DNA of 64,000 bases from a virus, in IMG/VR virus record IMGVR_UViG_3300047483_000174, positions 49,051-113,050 of that record. The stretch is one strand, 5' to 3'. Every line of letters starts with the position of its first letter. Position 1 is the first letter of the stretch. Shown one piece after another: positions 8,424 to 60,479 of this stretch. Under the pieces are notes generated by a model. That model ran no database searches. It had not been told where the DNA came from and worked only from the letters and a program-made list of their open reading frames with translations. The translations under genes and the position numbers were made by a program.

Positions 8424-9446
8424 TTAGTCTGCCTTGCGCTGACGGATCATTGCAAGGATATCAGATGCATCCTGTTTTGGCTTCGCTGGTGAAGAAACGG
8501 AAGCAGCTTTTTGTTTTACCTCGGCTTCTTCATTTGAATCAAAAGGGATGTCGTCATCCACTGGTGCTGGTGCTGATGCCTTCTTAGAAGGTGCAGCCGC
8601 CTGACCATTAGAGCCAGCACTATTGCTGGTAGATTTTGGATTGAACTCACCAAGATCAATGCCGTATGGACGATAGAAGTTCGCCCAACGTTCTGGATCA
8701 TAAAGTTCACCATCAACTGATGCTTCAAACATTTCCACCATGGCGGAAAGTTCTTCTGCATTTGGCTTCTTTGGCATGAAGTCATTTAGATCGCTTAGAC
8801 CGTATTGCTCAATTGCTGCACGTTCTAGTTCGTTCAGTGAACGTTCCTTACGCGCCCAGTTTGAGGTTCCATAGTCCGCATACTGACCATTTTGGGTTTT
8901 GATCAGACGGAAGTCAGTGCCAGCATCGTAATCAGTTGGGACTGTTTCCATATCTGGGTCCATCAGTGCGCCCTTCAGAATTTTGAAAATCTGTGGGGAA
9001 ATGATGAAACGGCGGATTGGGTTTTCTGGTGCATCCTTTTCATCAATAGGATTGGTGACAACAAAGCCTTGGAAAATGTATGAACGCTTCTTCCAATACT
9101 GACTTGCCAGTTTTTCCATTGATGGGTCTTTATACCAAGGACGAATTTCCGCGTGAATAGGGCATTGGTCGCCCCACATTTCAACACAAGGAACTTGAAT
9201 CGTGATTGGCTTGCTTTCAGCAATGCCTTTGATTCCAGAAAATGGTAGCTTGATGATTTGACGCTCACGCCAGAAAAAGTCGTTGGTCGCGTCTGCATCG
9301 GGGAGGAAACGCACAACCGCAGTGCTGTCAACTTCCATATTCCAAAATGGATATAGAGCGTTTGAACCTTGTGATTGGTTTGCGTTATTTTCTGCTTTTT
9401 TGTCTTGTGCCAAAAGTTTCGCACGGATTTCTGCTAGTGTAGCCAT
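8424..9446 (-). CDS. gp32: Single-stranded DNA-binding protein, T4 gp32-like
   Basis: MATLAEIRAKL N-terminus, VRFLPD, YWKKRSY, IISPQIFK, DFRLIKT, acidic tail with DDDIPF. Confidence 0.92.
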   Translation of the reverse strand: MATLAEIRAKLLAQDKKAENNANQSQGSNALYPFWNMEVDSTAVVRFLPDADATNDFFWRERQIIKLPFSGIKGIAESKPITIQVPCVEMWGDQCPIHAEIRPWYKDPSMEKLASQYWKKRSYIFQGFVVTNPIDEKDAPENPIRRFIISPQIFKILKGALMDPDMETVPTDYDAGTDFRLIKTQNGQYADYGTSNWARKERSLNELERAAIEQYGLSDLNDFMPKKPNAEELSAMVEMFEASVDGELYDPERWANFYRPYGIDLGEFNPKSTSNSAGSNGQAAAPSKKASAPAPVDDDIPFDSNEEAEVKQKAASVSSPAKPKQDASDILAMIRQRKAD

Positions 9447-9461
9447 AATATATTTCTCCTG

Positions 9462-9510
9462 TTAGTTAGATATTAGCTAGATATTAGATTTTATGTTAGT
9501 TAGATATTAG
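9462..9510 (-). repeat. CTAATATCTAACTAA-type repeats in the gp32 leader (putative autogenous operator)
   Basis: Two exact 15-mers (9462-9476, 9496-9510) plus a partial copy (9477-9487) immediately upstream of the AGGAG RBS. Confidence 0.8.
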
Positions 9511-9596
9511 GTTTTCTCAACACATCTCATAACAACATGTGTCCATATTACTTATCTTTTGAACAAAAGTCAAGCCCTAAATGCTTGATTTTGAAC

Positions 9597-9629
9597 AAAA
9601 AAATGAGGCGACCGAAGCCACCTCATTTT
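9597..9629 (-). terminator. Terminator after the 774-aa gene
   Basis: AAAATGAGG/CCTCATTTT stem with flanking A-tract on the plus strand. Confidence 0.75.
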
Positions 9630-47943: not shown

Positions 47944-49521
47944 TTACATCAAACTCACTAAAATTTCAATTATTCCAAACCCAGACGCTTGGCTTCCCAA
48001 CGCTTTGCCGATTACTGTTCCAACCGCAGGAGTTGAAGATGCAGTGGCGTATCCTGCTTGATCTGATGTAACAAGCAAATCGCCTTTGTTTATTGTTCCG
48101 TAAACCTTACATGTGGCACGTCCACTCAACACGACTGATGGGTGTGTAGTTGAAGTTCCTGCGTTTGCGTTCATCAAAATTGTTTCGTTTGAACCAATAA
48201 CACCGACAACAGTTTTATCGTCTGCAATTGTAGATTGGGTAATTTCGTTTGTTCCGCCAAACACCACAACAGTTCCAACATCATATACAGCATCAGTTGC
48301 GAAACGTTCAGATATATTAGTCCCGCTCACAGAATTGCTTGCATCTGTTACCATTGTATTGGTTGGAGTATTGGTAAAGTTATTATAATCCAAGTAATAT
48401 GATGGCAGTTGCGTATCTAACAAATCAGCATTTGTCGTAGTGGTCACAGTCGATGTTGTTGCTAATCTCAGAACATTCATTACTGAATTTAGAGCTAAAG
48501 GAGAAGATAGTGTAATTGTAGAACCAGTTACAGTATATGAGATGTCTGGATTCTGAACTACTCCGTCAATATACAATAGTATATGCCAAGATTGAGAGAC
48601 GAAATATGGAAGTGTGTATATACTCGTAGAACCGTTGCCAACAAATGTATCATAATACAACTGATTTATCTTTGCCGATGTGTCCAATACTATCTCATCA
48701 CCGACAACTGATACGGTCAAATCTCCGTTTCCTCCATTTGATATATTACCAACTGAAATTGTTTTGAATGATGCCATTGTGATATTTGATGAGTCGTATA
48801 TCGCAGCGCCAGTTCCAACATTTTGAGCAACAAAATCTATGGTATAAGTTCCTAATATATCATCATAGTTTGATTCCAATGAGTATCCAGAATCAAACAG
48901 TGAATTGAAACGGTCATCTACTCTTTCGTTTGTGTAGTAAAGATTGGTGGTTCCTTCGGTAAGGTCATCTGTCGTATAGTTTGTCAATACGTTTGTGATG
49001 TCAGTTCCATCGCCTATAATACTTGTGAAGTATCCAACTGCCGGAGTAGTAGCACCTATTACCGTGTTATCTATGTTTCCAGCACGAATATCAACTAAGC
49101 CATCGCCTGTGTTGTCTATGATGACTACACCATTTTGCGATGTTACATTACCAGAGATAGTTGCAAATACCACATTTGCATTTATGTTACCAGTAGTATG
49201 AAAGTCTTTATCGTCAAGAGTCCAGTAATCTTCTGTTTCATTCCAGAAGAGTCTGGCCCAAGTAAGATCGCCACGGTTTACTTCAATACCAACATCTTCT
49301 GTTGGTATTCCTTCAAAATCTGCATTTAGAGTTATGAATGGGTCCGCAAAAACCGTTTGTATTGAATTTACAGTGGTTGTGTTTCCTTCAACCTTTAAGT
49401 TTCCTCTTATAATAAGAGTTCCATTTCTTGATTCGATAACGGCATCATTGTCTCCATTGTCAAATGAGACGGTTTCACCACGTAAGAATAGACGATCACC
49501 AAATTTTATTTGTTCTGACAT
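47944..49521 (-). CDS. Fibre/structural protein with chaperone-like C-terminus
   Basis: GIEVNRG, TTDDLTEGTTNLYY and ERFATDAVYDVGTVVVFGG modules shared with the 936-aa protein. Confidence 0.7.
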   Translation of the reverse strand: MSEQIKFGDRLFLRGETVSFDNGDNDAVIESRNGTLIIRGNLKVEGNTTTVNSIQTVFADPFITLNADFEGIPTEDVGIEVNRGDLTWARLFWNETEDYWTLDDKDFHTTGNINANVVFATISGNVTSQNGVVIIDNTGDGLVDIRAGNIDNTVIGATTPAVGYFTSIIGDGTDITNVLTNYTTDDLTEGTTNLYYTNERVDDRFNSLFDSGYSLESNYDDILGTYTIDFVAQNVGTGAAIYDSSNITMASFKTISVGNISNGGNGDLTVSVVGDEIVLDTSAKINQLYYDTFVGNGSTSIYTLPYFVSQSWHILLYIDGVVQNPDISYTVTGSTITLSSPLALNSVMNVLRLATTSTVTTTTNADLLDTQLPSYYLDYNNFTNTPTNTMVTDASNSVSGTNISERFATDAVYDVGTVVVFGGTNEITQSTIADDKTVVGVIGSNETILMNANAGTSTTHPSVVLSGRATCKVYGTINKGDLLVTSDQAGYATASSTPAVGTVIGKALGSQASGFGIIEILVSLM

Positions 49522-58619: not shown

Positions 58620-58656
58620 AAATTTTCACCTTGACTTTTATTATTATTTTGTGTAT

Positions 58657-58696
58657 TATAAATACAACCATAAATATAACTCGTTAGTGTATTTAT
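58657..58696. promoter_or_regulatory. Divergent T4-type late promoters (TATAAATA plus at 58657-58664; ATAAATA minus at 58696-58690)
   Basis: The same ATAAATA core precedes many structural genes (minus-strand copies at 12001, 15310, 18526, 21121, 25276, 34832, 37985, 43358, 44549, 49555, 53888; plus at 27319). Confidence 0.8.
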
Positions 58697-58713
58697 CAAA
58701 GGTAAAAGATACG

Positions 58714-59553
58714 ATGTCAAACCCATTACTAAAACATTTTAGAAAACCAACCGCTTACATTCAATTGCCAACTCGTGGTATTTTCAACCCAGAAATAGAA
58801 AAAACAGTCATAGATGAAGTTCCAATACTTCCGATGACCGCCATAGACGAAATCGGATTGAAAAACCCTGACGCCCTACTGAACGGAGAAGCACTCGTAA
58901 ATCTCATTCGTAGCTGCGTTCCGTCTATTCCTGACCCATACAAAATTCCAAACATAGATGCAGAAGCATTGTATTTGGCGATACGTTATGCAACGTATGG
59001 AAAAGATACAACTCACACTCATACATGCAGCAAGTGTAAGGAAGTCAGTGATTTTAATATAGACATAAACTACATTCTGAGTAGATTTCCAGTGATAGAT
59101 GAATCGCCAACCGTTTCATATGATGGACTCACCATTCACATAAGACCAAACACCCTTCGTTCAATAATGAAAGTTTCAATTATTGAAGCAGAACAAACAA
59201 AACTGATAAACTTTTACGCATCCCCAGAATTTGAATACAATGATGAAGAGTCTGCCGCAAAAAGAATTTACGACAGTTTCAGAAAAATTGCTATTCATAA
59301 TGTGGATGTGGTTTCGGACGCCATCTTGAAAATTGAAGATGATGAAGGAAACGAGATTGATGACCAAAAATATATTGCAGAATTTTTGAATAACGTTCCA
59401 AGTAGTCTTATTGCGGAAATTCAACAAAAAGTAAAATCAATTTCAAAACTTCCAGAAGATGCATCAATTACAGAATTCCAATGTCCTTCTTGTAATCACA
59501 AAGACAAAGTGAAGATTGAGTTTAACCCAGTAAATTTTTCCGTAGCTGGCTAG
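58714..59553 (+). CDS. gp26-like baseplate hub / tail assembly chaperone; likely start MSNPLL at 58714
   Basis: NPLLKHFRKPTAYIQLPTRG, PMTAIDE..LKNPDALLNGEA, D...L.LAIR.ATYG, two CxxC motifs. Confidence 0.8.
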   Translation: MSNPLLKHFRKPTAYIQLPTRGIFNPEIEKTVIDEVPILPMTAIDEIGLKNPDALLNGEALVNLIRSCVPSIPDPYKIPNIDAEALYLAIRYATYGKDTTHTHTCSKCKEVSDFNIDINYILSRFPVIDESPTVSYDGLTIHIRPNTLRSIMKVSIIEAEQTKLINFYASPEFEYNDEESAAKRIYDSFRKIAIHNVDVVSDAILKIEDDEGNEIDDQKYIAEFLNNVPSSLIAEIQQKVKSISKLPEDASITEFQCPSCNHKDKVKIEFNPVNFSVAG

Positions 59554-59771
59554 TAACCGCTAGTCAGCAGGATATAGCAAAAAAATTGTCAGATTATAAA
59601 AAACAGCTTGACGCGACTCACAAGAATCTGATACAATTAACTTGGTATATGAGAGGCGGCGTGTCACTATCTGAGATATATGACATGCCAGTTACGCACA
59701 TTCAACATATTCACAAAGTTATTGGTGAAAATTTTGAAATGTCGAAAAAAGCTAAAACACCAATTATATAA
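59538..59771 (+). CDS. -1 frameshift extension of the chaperone (gp51-/gpT-like segment, WYMRGGVSLSEIYDM)
   Basis: Frame open from 59526; no ATG with RBS; slippery heptamer and hairpin at the junction. Confidence 0.75.
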   Translation, partial: FRSWLVTASQQDIAKKLSDYKKQLDATHKNLIQLTWYMRGGVSLSEIYDMPVTHIQHIHKVIGENFEMSKKAKTPII

Positions 59772-60325
59772 AATACACATCTAATATCTAACTAATACAT
59801 ACCCGTATTGAGGGACGCGCACCTGATGATAAAAGCGCACTTCCAAACAAATGAGATTAAGGTTGACACGCCGTCTGTAATTGTGTCGGGAATCCGTTCT
59901 GATGTGTGACGGTAACCAAACGGGTATGCTCATTTACTCGCTGCAACACACTACCCCATCCTTGTAGGTGGGATGCCTTAAACGTCCTAATTAGTGAACC
60001 GTTTGTGTTGTAGGAATGGTTGGTAGTCTGGAAACAGATGAAAAAACGTGGGTAGCCCTGAAGGCTACTTTACGACCAGTTTTATGTGACATACTAAACA
60101 ATAGTCACTAACCGTGGACAGGCAATAATACGCACTGTCAACTACTCTATATACTGAAGTCTTGTCTTGTTTTAGAGTGGTGCCGTTGGGTCGAAAGACG
60201 CAAAACTGAATGATGGGGGGATAGCCAACCGACCCCGCCCTACTCTGGGGGCTAGTTCAATGACGAGATAACCGATGCCAGAGATGTATCTGTTTTTTAA
60301 TTTGCTCCCCCAGTGGGGGCAAATA
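59772..60325 (+). ncRNA. Putative large structured non-coding RNA of unassigned family
   Basis: No convincing ORF; at least eight predicted helices including long-range pairings, a GAAA tetraloop and a possible pseudoknot; GC-richer than the downstream AT-rich flank. Confidence 0.55.
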
Positions 60326-60479
60326 TACCTCAACCGAGATGATATATATCATTGATGATTCAATGATAATATGTAATACATAAGTAATAAGAAAGAATAA
60401 TCCCGATGAATGGAATAACGAATGATAATGAGTTATTCCATTCAGAGAGGATTGGTCTTTAGACCAAATAGGATTCCTT

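Follow-up and report, generated by a model that had tools for sequence, protein, structure and literature searches.

The 64,000-nucleotide (nt) stretch analysed here, hereafter the window, represents positions 49,051 to 113,050 of the IMG/VR virus record IMGVR_UViG_3300047483_000174. The subject of this analysis is a non-coding region at 59772-60325 of the window, to which an RNA gene of approximately 550 nt was assigned (59781-60345, plus strand). Upstream of it lie a gp26-like gene encoding a T4-type baseplate-hub protein (58651-59553; Pfam T4_baseplate, 6.5e-18; PHROG baseplate hub) and a small open reading frame (ORF) which terminates at 59771. A 219-amino acid (aa) ORF, a 171-aa ORF, and a PDDEXK gene follow downstream, and the RNA gene lies between the baseplate-hub gene and recombination/repair genes. 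The longest ORF within 59772-60325 has at most 53 aa, and none within 59781-60345 is credible. The G+C content of the non-coding stretch is 0.43-0.48, compared with 0.30-0.35 in both flanks; for 59781-60345 as a whole it amounts to 45%, with 33% in the flanks. The source is an uncultivated marine jumbo T4-like phage, whose size class follows from a record of 137 kb that is only 37% complete (CheckV). Its nearest cultured relatives based on gp26 (approximately 30% identity) are Sinorhizobium phage Phosso, Agrobacterium phage Atu_ph07, Pseudomonas phage PA5oct, and other Rak2-like jumbo phages.

The conserved 3' core

A sequence-only reading of the window had proposed that a large, ornate, structured phage RNA is encoded here, and a string search recovered every motif it listed at exactly the coordinates it gave. 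The minimum-free-energy fold of the single sequence is modestly better than those of shuffled sequences (z = -1.97 for the plus strand and -2.28 for the minus strand). Since the difference is about two standard deviations and is alike on both strands, the sequence of the window alone is suggestive, not decisive. It is the compensatory changes found in relatives, the covariation analysis which the sequence-only reading had called for, that bear out the proposal.

Relatives were gathered via gp26, and the loci obtained were then searched with the non-coding region. In approximately 40 gp26-linked loci the region is kept at the nucleotide level and at the same place (nhmmer), although gp26 itself is only 50-55% identical; these loci are referred to as type A. 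RNAalifold analysis of 32 type-A sequences yielded 82 base pairs, 29 of which show compensatory double changes, with hardly any broken pairs. Two pseudoknots (PK1 and PK2) were added to this model by eye. For the 3' core, 40 pairs including both pseudoknots were counted in an alignment of the window with 29 type-A sequences. In this alignment 96.2% of the cells are paired, compared with 26-43% when the partners are slid by one to three columns; compensatory changes are present in 18 of the 40 pairs, and none of 500 shuffles was as good. The window aligns with these sequences across the whole core and retains all helices, some of them via compensatory changes. The features that define membership of the core are all found in it: H8a with PK1, the GCCGUUGR x YCAAC element (PK2), and H10, H11, and H12 nested between them. 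G-U pairs outnumber A-C pairs (56 to 6 and 117 to 53), indicating that the RNA has plus-strand orientation in the window. We consider it very likely that 59781-60345 is a functional structured RNA gene (table 1).

The loop of H8a forms PK1 with a partner strand located some 100 nt further downstream, and UUAGCGU/ACGCUAA is the counterpart of PK1 in a second subtype, type B, which is described below. In PK2, the R:Y pair of GUUGR x YCAAC switches from G-C to A-U in 11 of the 29 rows. The sequence-only reading had instead paired CCAACC (60225) with GGTTGG (60018), but the family-wide partner of CCAAC is the GTTGG at 60185-60189, next to this covarying pair. Most of the other stems it listed fared better: compensatory changes in relatives were found for GACAC/GTGTC (P1) and CAACACA/TGTGTTG (P4) of the 5' domain, for GTAGCC/GGCTAC (H6), ACTACTCTA/TAGAGTGGT (H8a), and GTC-GAAA-GAC in the core, and for the closing hairpin at 60301-60323. 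Thus, six stems are confirmed by compensatory changes and one by the close relative L427, while two long-range pairings are replaced by better-supported partners.

L427 is a marine metagenome contig which carries an 88%-identical full-length copy of the RNA (462 bits). It was reached through the 17-mer GGGATGCCTTAAACGTC, whose matches in viral contigs are mostly due to chance. Between the window and L427 the GAAA loop of the GUC-GAAA-GAC hairpin has changed to GCAA.

Table 1. Predicted features of the RNA gene and its flanks (positions in the window)
Feature	Position	Strand	Remarks
Candidate sigma-70-type promoter TTGACG-N18-TACAAT with TG	59608..59637	+	Consensus scan 10/12; inside small upstream ORF
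5' leader, unstructured	59781..59797	+	Three CUAAUA-type repeats
Outer helix CATACCCGT / ACGGGTATG	59798-59806 / 59920-59928	+	Lineage-specific; encloses hairpin 59812-59844, P1, and P2
Crossing helix AAATGAG / CTCATTT	59849-59855 / 59929-59935	+	Present in L076; unchanged in L427
P1 hairpin GACAC / GTGTC	59865..59887	+	97.7% paired; 5/5 pairs compensatory (53 sequences)
P2 hairpin CCGT / ACGG, loop UCUGAUGUGUG	59894..59912	+	Identical to hairpin of type-B locus L299
P4 long-range helix CAACACA / TGTGTTG	59944-59950 / 60004-60010	+	97% paired; 4/5 pairs covary; CTACAC/GTGTAG in L076
Linker hairpin UCUG-GAAA-CAGA (GNRA loop)	60027..60038	+	Between the two domains; kept in L427; not found in other subtypes
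H6 hairpin CGUGGGUAGCC / GGCUACUUUACG	60047..60074	+	Covaries in type A (alignment columns 164-192); G-C to A-U in L427
Variable insert hairpin	60086-60108	+	A different GAAA hairpin stands here in type A1
H7 hairpin GACAG / CUGUC	60117-60139	+	Covaries in type A (alignment columns 228-249); A-U to G-C in L427
H8a hairpin ACUACUCUA / UAGAGUGGU	60141..60181	+	Loop strand UCUUGUC (60160-60166) enters PK1
PK1 UCUUGUC x GACGAGA	60160-60166 / 60262-60268	+	99.5% paired; double changes in 4/7 pairs
PK2 GUUGG x CCAAC in H11 loop	60185-60189 / 60225-60229	+	100% paired
GUC-GAAA-GAC hairpin	60190-60199	+	Between the PK2 strands; stem covaries, loop stays GNRA (GAAA or GCAA)
H10 UGAAU / GUUCA	60207-60211 / 60255-60259	+	Compensatory changes; encloses H11 and H12
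H11 GGGG region / CCCC	60215-60218 / 60233-60236	+	Compensatory changes
H12 hairpin	60237-60252	+	Compensatory changes
Twin box, first copy AACCGA ... GAGAUG	60270-60275 ... 60281-60286	+	
Terminal hairpin UUUGCUCCCCC / GGGGGCAAA	60301..60323	+	RNAalifold covariation in type A (alignment columns 429-454); no U-tract after it
3' tail	60324..60345	+	Second twin box AACCGAGAUG at 60332-60341
Further hairpin, loop GAAUGAUAAUGA	60407-60444	+	At least 27/59 type-A loci; rare in type B
Further hairpin UGGUC-UUUA-GACCA	60453-60466	+	53/59 type-A loci; rare in type B

The exchangeable 5' domain and Polynucleobacter-1

Two subtypes were recognized by signature searches of IMG/VR: type A (GTGCCGTTGNNNCGNAAGNNGCA, 99 stretches) and type B (GGTACCGGACAACCGCC, at least 119 stretches). 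A covariance model of the type-A 3' core (R1) picks up type B only marginally (E = 0.16-0.9). The RNA of the window is a hybrid with regard to these subtypes. Its 3' half aligns with type A, and its 5' half with a more distant locus, L076 (E = 2e-16), which lies on the opposite strand relative to gp26 and whose 3' half bears the type-B signature. Type A has yet another 5' domain. The family therefore consists of a conserved, uncatalogued core joined to an exchangeable 5' domain.

The 5' domain was analysed in 53 sequences, mostly of type B. Over 34 pairs, 88.8% of the cells are paired, 23 of the 34 pairs show compensatory changes, and none of 500 shuffles matched this. Within this domain, three elements lie inside P4: the motif CACUACCC, hairpin P5 (59955-59972), and a P6-like hairpin. 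The helix AAATGAG/CTCATTT, which crosses the outer helix, is the counterpart of a type-B pseudoknot between a strand upstream of P1 and the P3 loop; double changes occur in four of the five pairs of the type-B counterpart, with an imperfect alignment register and 67% of cells paired. The long-range outer helix listed by the sequence-only reading is specific to the lineage of the window. This helix (CAUACCCGU/ACGGGUAUG) is retained in L427, where a double change has turned one U-A pair into C-G and two further single changes are compatible with wobble pairing; the hairpin at 59812-59844 also shows compensatory changes there. On the other hand, the pseudoknot suggested between the loop GCCGTC and GACGGT is not supported: GACGG instead closes the local P2 hairpin with CCGT (59894-59912), which covaries in relatives, and L076 is unable to form the suggested pairing.

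In type B, this domain has been catalogued before. Six type-B loci match the Rfam family Polynucleobacter-1 (RF01718) at 59-119 bits, well above its gathering score of 37. This motif was reported as a likely RNA, possibly cis-regulatory, in Burkholderiales and fresh water (Weinberg et al. 2010, Genome Biol 11:R31, PMC2864571), and it corresponds to the 5' third (141 nt) of the type-B RNAs. The 5' domain of the window appears to share its architecture (P1, P2, the ACUAYCC motif, and a P4 helix around P5 and P6), and L299, a locus positive for RF01718, has an identical P2 hairpin. In terms of the helix order of RF01718, the window has P1, P2, P4, P5, and CACUACCC in order, and the P3 hairpin and the GGAA linker are missing or replaced. 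It also differs in having an extra 5' helix and a different linker. Direct sequence similarity between the window and the RF01718-positive loci is weak (nhmmer, E = 4e-4 to 4e-3). The window gives no match to RF01718 at the gathering score or at E<=10, a second, independent model of the same domain built from 50 type-B sequences (R2, run with filters off) gives none at 59.8-60.0 kb, and an nhmmer profile gives none either.

Other known RNAs gave no matches. Rfam 15 searched with the whole window, as the sequence-only reading had proposed, returned none at the gathering score and, for the region at E<=10, only noise. cmscan searches at E<=10 of the window, of the type-A1 locus L017, and of L076 matched no model of RNase P RNA, 6S, SRP, GOLLD, ROOL, OLE, HEARO, or raiA. 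ARAGORN found no tRNA or transfer-messenger RNA (tmRNA) in the window, and the tmRNA model of Rfam was likewise unmatched. Group I and group II introns were considered and rejected: no Rfam model matched, the upstream ORF is closed by a stop codon, the downstream genes vary among relatives, and the orientation is inverted in type B. These results agree with the view of the sequence-only reading that hallmarks of tRNA, tmRNA, RNase P, and group I/II introns are absent, and add GOLLD and ROOL to the list.

Like the RNA described here, GOLLD, ROOL, OLE, raiA, and HEARO are several hundred nucleotides long, have covarying helices, pseudoknots, and GNRA loops, are often phage-borne, and are unexplained in function. 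They differ from it in architecture and in host range, which in its case comprises aquatic jumbo T4-like phages, and none of their Rfam models matches it in sequence or structure. Structures of large ornate bacterial and phage RNAs have been described (bioRxiv 10.1101/2024.12.08.627333). A description of the full RNA was found neither in Rfam nor in the phage genome collection or literature searched. A 2023 catalogue of 10,006 viral candidate structured RNAs, in the part available to us, contains motifs of 29-151 nt only (PMC10690425), and fragments of this RNA may be among them.

The suggestion that the RNA belongs to a possibly undescribed class therefore fails for the 5' third of type B, which is Polynucleobacter-1, and stands for the other two thirds and for the variant of the window itself, which are uncatalogued. 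Rfam lacks the double-pseudoknot core, the terminal hairpin, and the twin boxes, and a motif listed as bacterial turns out to be phage-borne, the 5' domain of a much larger phage RNA. Most of the RNA's length is uncatalogued, and the family as a whole is partly known via Polynucleobacter-1 and functionally unexplained. Large and intricately folded RNAs are rare, and nearly every one that is well understood is fundamental (ribosome, RNase P, introns, tmRNA). Here, such a family of approximately 450-550 nt is confined to phages, its fold is proven by abundant compensatory change, and only one third of one subtype had been catalogued. In addition, its 5' domain can be swapped while the double-pseudoknot core stays.

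Distribution and gene neighbourhood

The family spans at least 200 IMG/VR contigs from sea and fresh water, belonging to uncultivated jumbo T4-like myoviruses. Contigs with the RNA are up to 345 kb long, and one of them (G003, IMGVR_UViG_3300020469_003050) is a complete genome of 342,607 bp with direct terminal repeats and a single copy of the RNA. A type-B 17-mer was found 71 times in 185,579 bacterial and archaeal species genomes, as expected by chance. The full signature is present at two of these 71 occurrences, both on contigs of metagenome-assembled genomes (MAGs) which resemble misbinned phage, indicating that the family is restricted to phages. When the versions of the window, type A, and type B were compared by blastn with a collection of 50,697 deposited phage genomes, no match was obtained.

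In cultured relatives, the syntenic place between gp26 and the resolvase or gp46 genes is poor in genes and consists of gaps of 1-1.5 kb in which the annotated ORFs are all tiny (L317:7302-8315 in Phosso, L318:5832-6938 in Atu_ph07, and L320:6565-8077 in PA5oct), and the PA5oct gap is partly richer in G+C than its flanks. R1 and Rfam detected no homologue of the RNA in the gaps of these three phages and of Vibrio phage 2.275.O; unrelated or very diverged RNAs may be present there. The four published non-coding RNAs of PA5oct are located elsewhere in its genome, not at the syntenic gap (PMC7318152).

The RNA is co-oriented with gp26 in type A and in the window, and lies on the opposite strand in type B as well as in L076. 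Its occurrence in either orientation relative to gp26 shows that the RNA gene is a unit of its own. In type B, the RNA starts a few nucleotides past the stop codon of a GIY-YIG gene of 142-147 aa (SegE-type, PF19835, E = 1e-32 to 5e-37); upstream of this gene, in turn, is a gp46/SbcC-like gene. Type A1 has the same nuclease gene on the downstream side of the RNA (e.g., L017:4396-4833). This minimal GIY-YIG gene always abuts the RNA in types B (L198-L316) and A1, and its identity between them is 66%, compared with only about 32% for gp26. Its behaviour resembles that of a free-standing mobile homing endonuclease which targets the surroundings of the RNA gene, and it may have settled beside a conserved RNA gene. 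A PDDEXK_15 gene is found downstream of the RNA in the L009 group.

Canonical sigma-70-type promoters are present in the intergenic region before the RNA in type A1 (TTGACA-N17-TAGTAT) and L076 (TTGACA-N17-TATAAT). They point to transcription by the host polymerase, hence early, and not to the late expression assumed by the sequence-only reading. For the window, the candidate promoter listed in table 1 has a TTGAC..TA-AT arrangement which is kept in all type-A relatives (alignment columns about 160-200); it is also coding sequence, so its conservation is ambiguous. In L076 (5760-6240, minus strand), a leader of approximately 480 nt precedes the RNA behind a perfect TTGACA-N17-TATAAT promoter and contains some 15 AGGCUAA/AGGCAUA repeats and two copies of a hairpin unit of about 60 nt.

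Twin boxes, leader repeats, and possible modes of action

Two features suggest what the RNA may interact with. The first is a pair of short identical sequences, here called twin boxes, which flank the terminal hairpin. A distance of 50-58 nt separates them in type B, where the 7-mers (RGAURAN, eight variants) are identical in 92 of 92 RNAs that have two boxes; in shuffled pairings, the number of identical pairs was 16.5 +/- 3.6, with a maximum of 31. The boxes of type A are quite different from those of type B and yet match each other (UAUCAAG, UGACAAG, UGAACAAG, GGGACAGA, and others). The boxes of the window are AACCGA...GAGAUG before the hairpin and AACCGAGAUG after it, and both copies have become UACCGA in L427. 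Gene conversion is an unlikely cause of their identity, since the sequence surrounding the two copies differs. It appears from these sequences that something reads the same short code twice. To our knowledge, twin boxes occur in none of GOLLD, ROOL, OLE, raiA, and HEARO. The boxes change in step in every lineage. Taken together with the place of Polynucleobacter-1 as a 5' domain and with the swapping of that domain around a constant core, this makes a new RNA function of phages concretely testable.

In type B, each box was also observed to sit in a larger repeated module (R-GUGAC, 5-8 nt, YCUY, box), and every box variant reads GGA or AGA followed by UGA or UAA. A bypass like that of gene 60, with a sense codon followed by a stop codon at the boxes, was considered and dropped because no ORF leads into the first box. 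An internal anti-box complementary to the twin boxes was not found within the RNA once G-U-rich artefacts had been removed.

The second feature is the leader. Its 15-mer CTAATATCTAACTAA (59781-59795) is identical to repeats in the mRNA leader of the single-stranded DNA-binding protein (SSB, gp32-like), which is encoded on the minus strand (repeats at 9462-9510) and where the copies lie between the promoter and the Shine-Dalgarno sequence. Relatives whose SSB is 66% identical have CTAATA repeats in the SSB leader and the RNA leader alike, and the RNA leader of L427 has one repeat more. CUAAUA as a general promoter motif was rejected: the 64 kb contain only 26 copies, and these cluster at the two leaders. 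In T4, gp32 binds cooperatively to unstructured repeats beside a folded element and in this way represses its own mRNA. The arrangement here is similar in that short, unstructured, A/U-rich repeats stand beside a folded element and the same 15-mer recurs in the leader of the phage's own SSB gene; it differs in that the repeats precede a non-coding RNA and not a start codon, and binding by SSB is proposed by analogy.

The SSB leader was also inspected as such (window 9440-9600, minus strand). It contains a sigma-70-type promoter, a hairpin, and 2.5 copies of CTAATATCTAACTAAC up to the Shine-Dalgarno sequence, and judged by this layout it looks like an autoregulatory operator. In L321-L324, GGCTAATA/ACTAATA repeats occupy the same place in the SSB leader.

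On balance, we lean towards a stand-alone RNA gene of about 550 nt, belonging to a phage family and acting in trans with a twin-box code. Host RNA polymerase would transcribe the RNA from a sigma-70-type promoter, and the product would fold into a compact tertiary structure. It would work in trans, as an RNA or an RNA-protein particle, rather than as the leader of a neighbouring gene. The twin boxes would serve as a lineage-specific specificity code which is read twice by one co-evolving partner, and the CUAAUA-repeat leader would be bound by the factor that controls SSB; given the analogy of T4 gene 32 autoregulation, the phage SSB would be the most plausible candidate. The 15-mer shared with the SSB leader, together with this analogy, suggests that the same factor probably binds both leaders. 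Taken by itself, the part of this proposal that describes a trans-acting particle with a twin-box code is tentative. A bolder version, in which the family is a new class of large phage RNA, the core is a catalytic or protein-organizing machine, and the boxes are a short programmable code that is read twice by base pairing with a co-evolving nucleic-acid partner, so that the RNA would be guide- or ribozyme-like rather than a passive scaffold, is doubtful.

Several observations weigh against a trans-acting RNA gene of this kind. We infer the transcript, its ends, and its timing from sequence. In the window, an intergenic promoter before the RNA is missing and the sole plausible candidate is in the upstream ORF, so that read-through from the gp26 operon is possible; moreover, no U-tract terminator follows the terminal hairpin. 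The searches turned up neither a partner protein nor a target, nothing within the RNA is complementary to the box, and neither the box nor its complement is enriched in the complete genome G003. The link to SSB comes from the shared repeat and the T4 analogy. The GIY-YIG nuclease gene is absent from the window and from G003 and so its product cannot be the partner of the RNA; an RNA-guided GIY-YIG nuclease, which was also considered, is unlikely for the same reason.

Other explanations have to be set against a trans-acting gene. The RNA might be a replication-origin primer, in line with the structured origin transcript that the sequence-only reading had named as an alternative: a promoter-driven transcript which forms a persistent R-loop and primes the leading strand like ColE1 RNA II or the T4 oriE/oriF/oriG transcripts, with the fold governing R-loop formation and the CUAAUA leader acting as a DNA-unwinding and SSB-loading zone. 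Those transcripts are likewise promoter-driven, non-coding, several hundred nucleotides long, and located among replication/recombination genes, and T4 oriE lies in a baseplate gene region, with repeats and an early transcript. Here, the locus borders late structural genes on one side and replication, recombination, and repair genes on the other: a ligase gene and the PDDEXK resolvase-like gene are present in the window, gp46/SbcC-like genes in relatives, and RNase HI beside the syntenic gap of Phosso. The sigma-70 promoters of relatives and the leader repeats in common with the SSB leader would also suit a primer. In G003, cumulative GC skew reaches its main local minimum at ~178 kb, at the main switch in gene orientation and approximately 7 kb from the RNA (185.9 kb); however, the skew tracks gene orientation, and its minimum is not at the RNA. 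Furthermore, most members have no iteron array (many AGGCUAA repeats occur in L076 only), and the gene is flipped between subtypes. The fold is also much more conserved and more knotted than those of the known primers, and two covarying pseudoknots, GNRA loops, and twin boxes across hundreds of phages exceed what a primer is known to need. We therefore regard an origin primer as unlikely. A ribozyme, distinctly unlikely in our judgment, would use the double-pseudoknot core as a catalyst, either excising itself at the two boxes or acting on another RNA. The size, the two pseudoknots, invariant junction nucleotides (GUGCCGUUG, CAACCGAC), and GNRA tetraloops are typical of large ribozymes, and a 3' end without terminator and with identical boxes around the terminal hairpin would suit two equivalent processing sites. 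Yet no ribozyme family of Rfam 15 was matched, and cleavage that depends on the fold alone gives no reason why the boxes change together between lineages.

A cis-regulatory role, as a leader or 3' untranslated region for a neighbouring gene, was the original guess for Polynucleobacter-1, which is listed as possibly cis-regulatory (Weinberg et al. 2010). It gains from the co-directional gene 130-230 nt downstream in the window and type A, and from the start of the type-B RNA just past the GIY-YIG stop codon. The downstream gene varies, though, among GIY-YIG, PDDEXK, unrelated ORFs of 168-446 aa, and the 219-aa ORF of the window, and in some relatives the next gene is preceded by a separate promoter located after the RNA. 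In L076 and in about half of the type-B loci, the RNA is followed by no co-directional gene at all, which disfavours a leader function, and approximately 450-550 nt with two pseudoknots is far above the size of known phage leaders. Such a role is very unlikely. Least credible is the view that the RNA does nothing itself for the phage and is a mere remnant or passenger of a mobile element, either intron-like or part of a homing-endonuclease cassette. The presence of the GIY-YIG gene beside the RNA in types A1 and B, with an identity far above that of gp26, is mobile-gene behaviour. On the other hand, the RNA persists without the nuclease in the window, the L009 group, and G003, no gene is interrupted, the group I/II intron models are unmatched, and strong purifying and compensatory evolution speaks for function. 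It is more likely that an endonuclease homes next to a conserved RNA gene than that the RNA is its relic.

Some minor observations concern the flanks of the RNA gene. The two hairpins within 60407-60466 are located downstream of an A+T-rich spacer and before the next gene, and L076 has both of them with no gene following. In type-A loci, the first of them has a loop of the form GA-NN-GA-N-A-NN-GA and covarying stems. These hairpins could either extend the RNA at its 3' end or form the leader of the gene downstream.

At the other side, an A-AAU-UUU-type heptamer occurs at the end of the gp26-like gene (59526-59771), and behind it a GCUGG...CCAGC hairpin extends across the stop codon. All type-A relatives retain the two elements (alignment columns about 85-125), and the -1 frame is open for a downstream ORF of 61 aa. 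As sequence features, the heptamer, the hairpin, and the open -1 frame would fit a ribosomal frameshift at the end of gp26.

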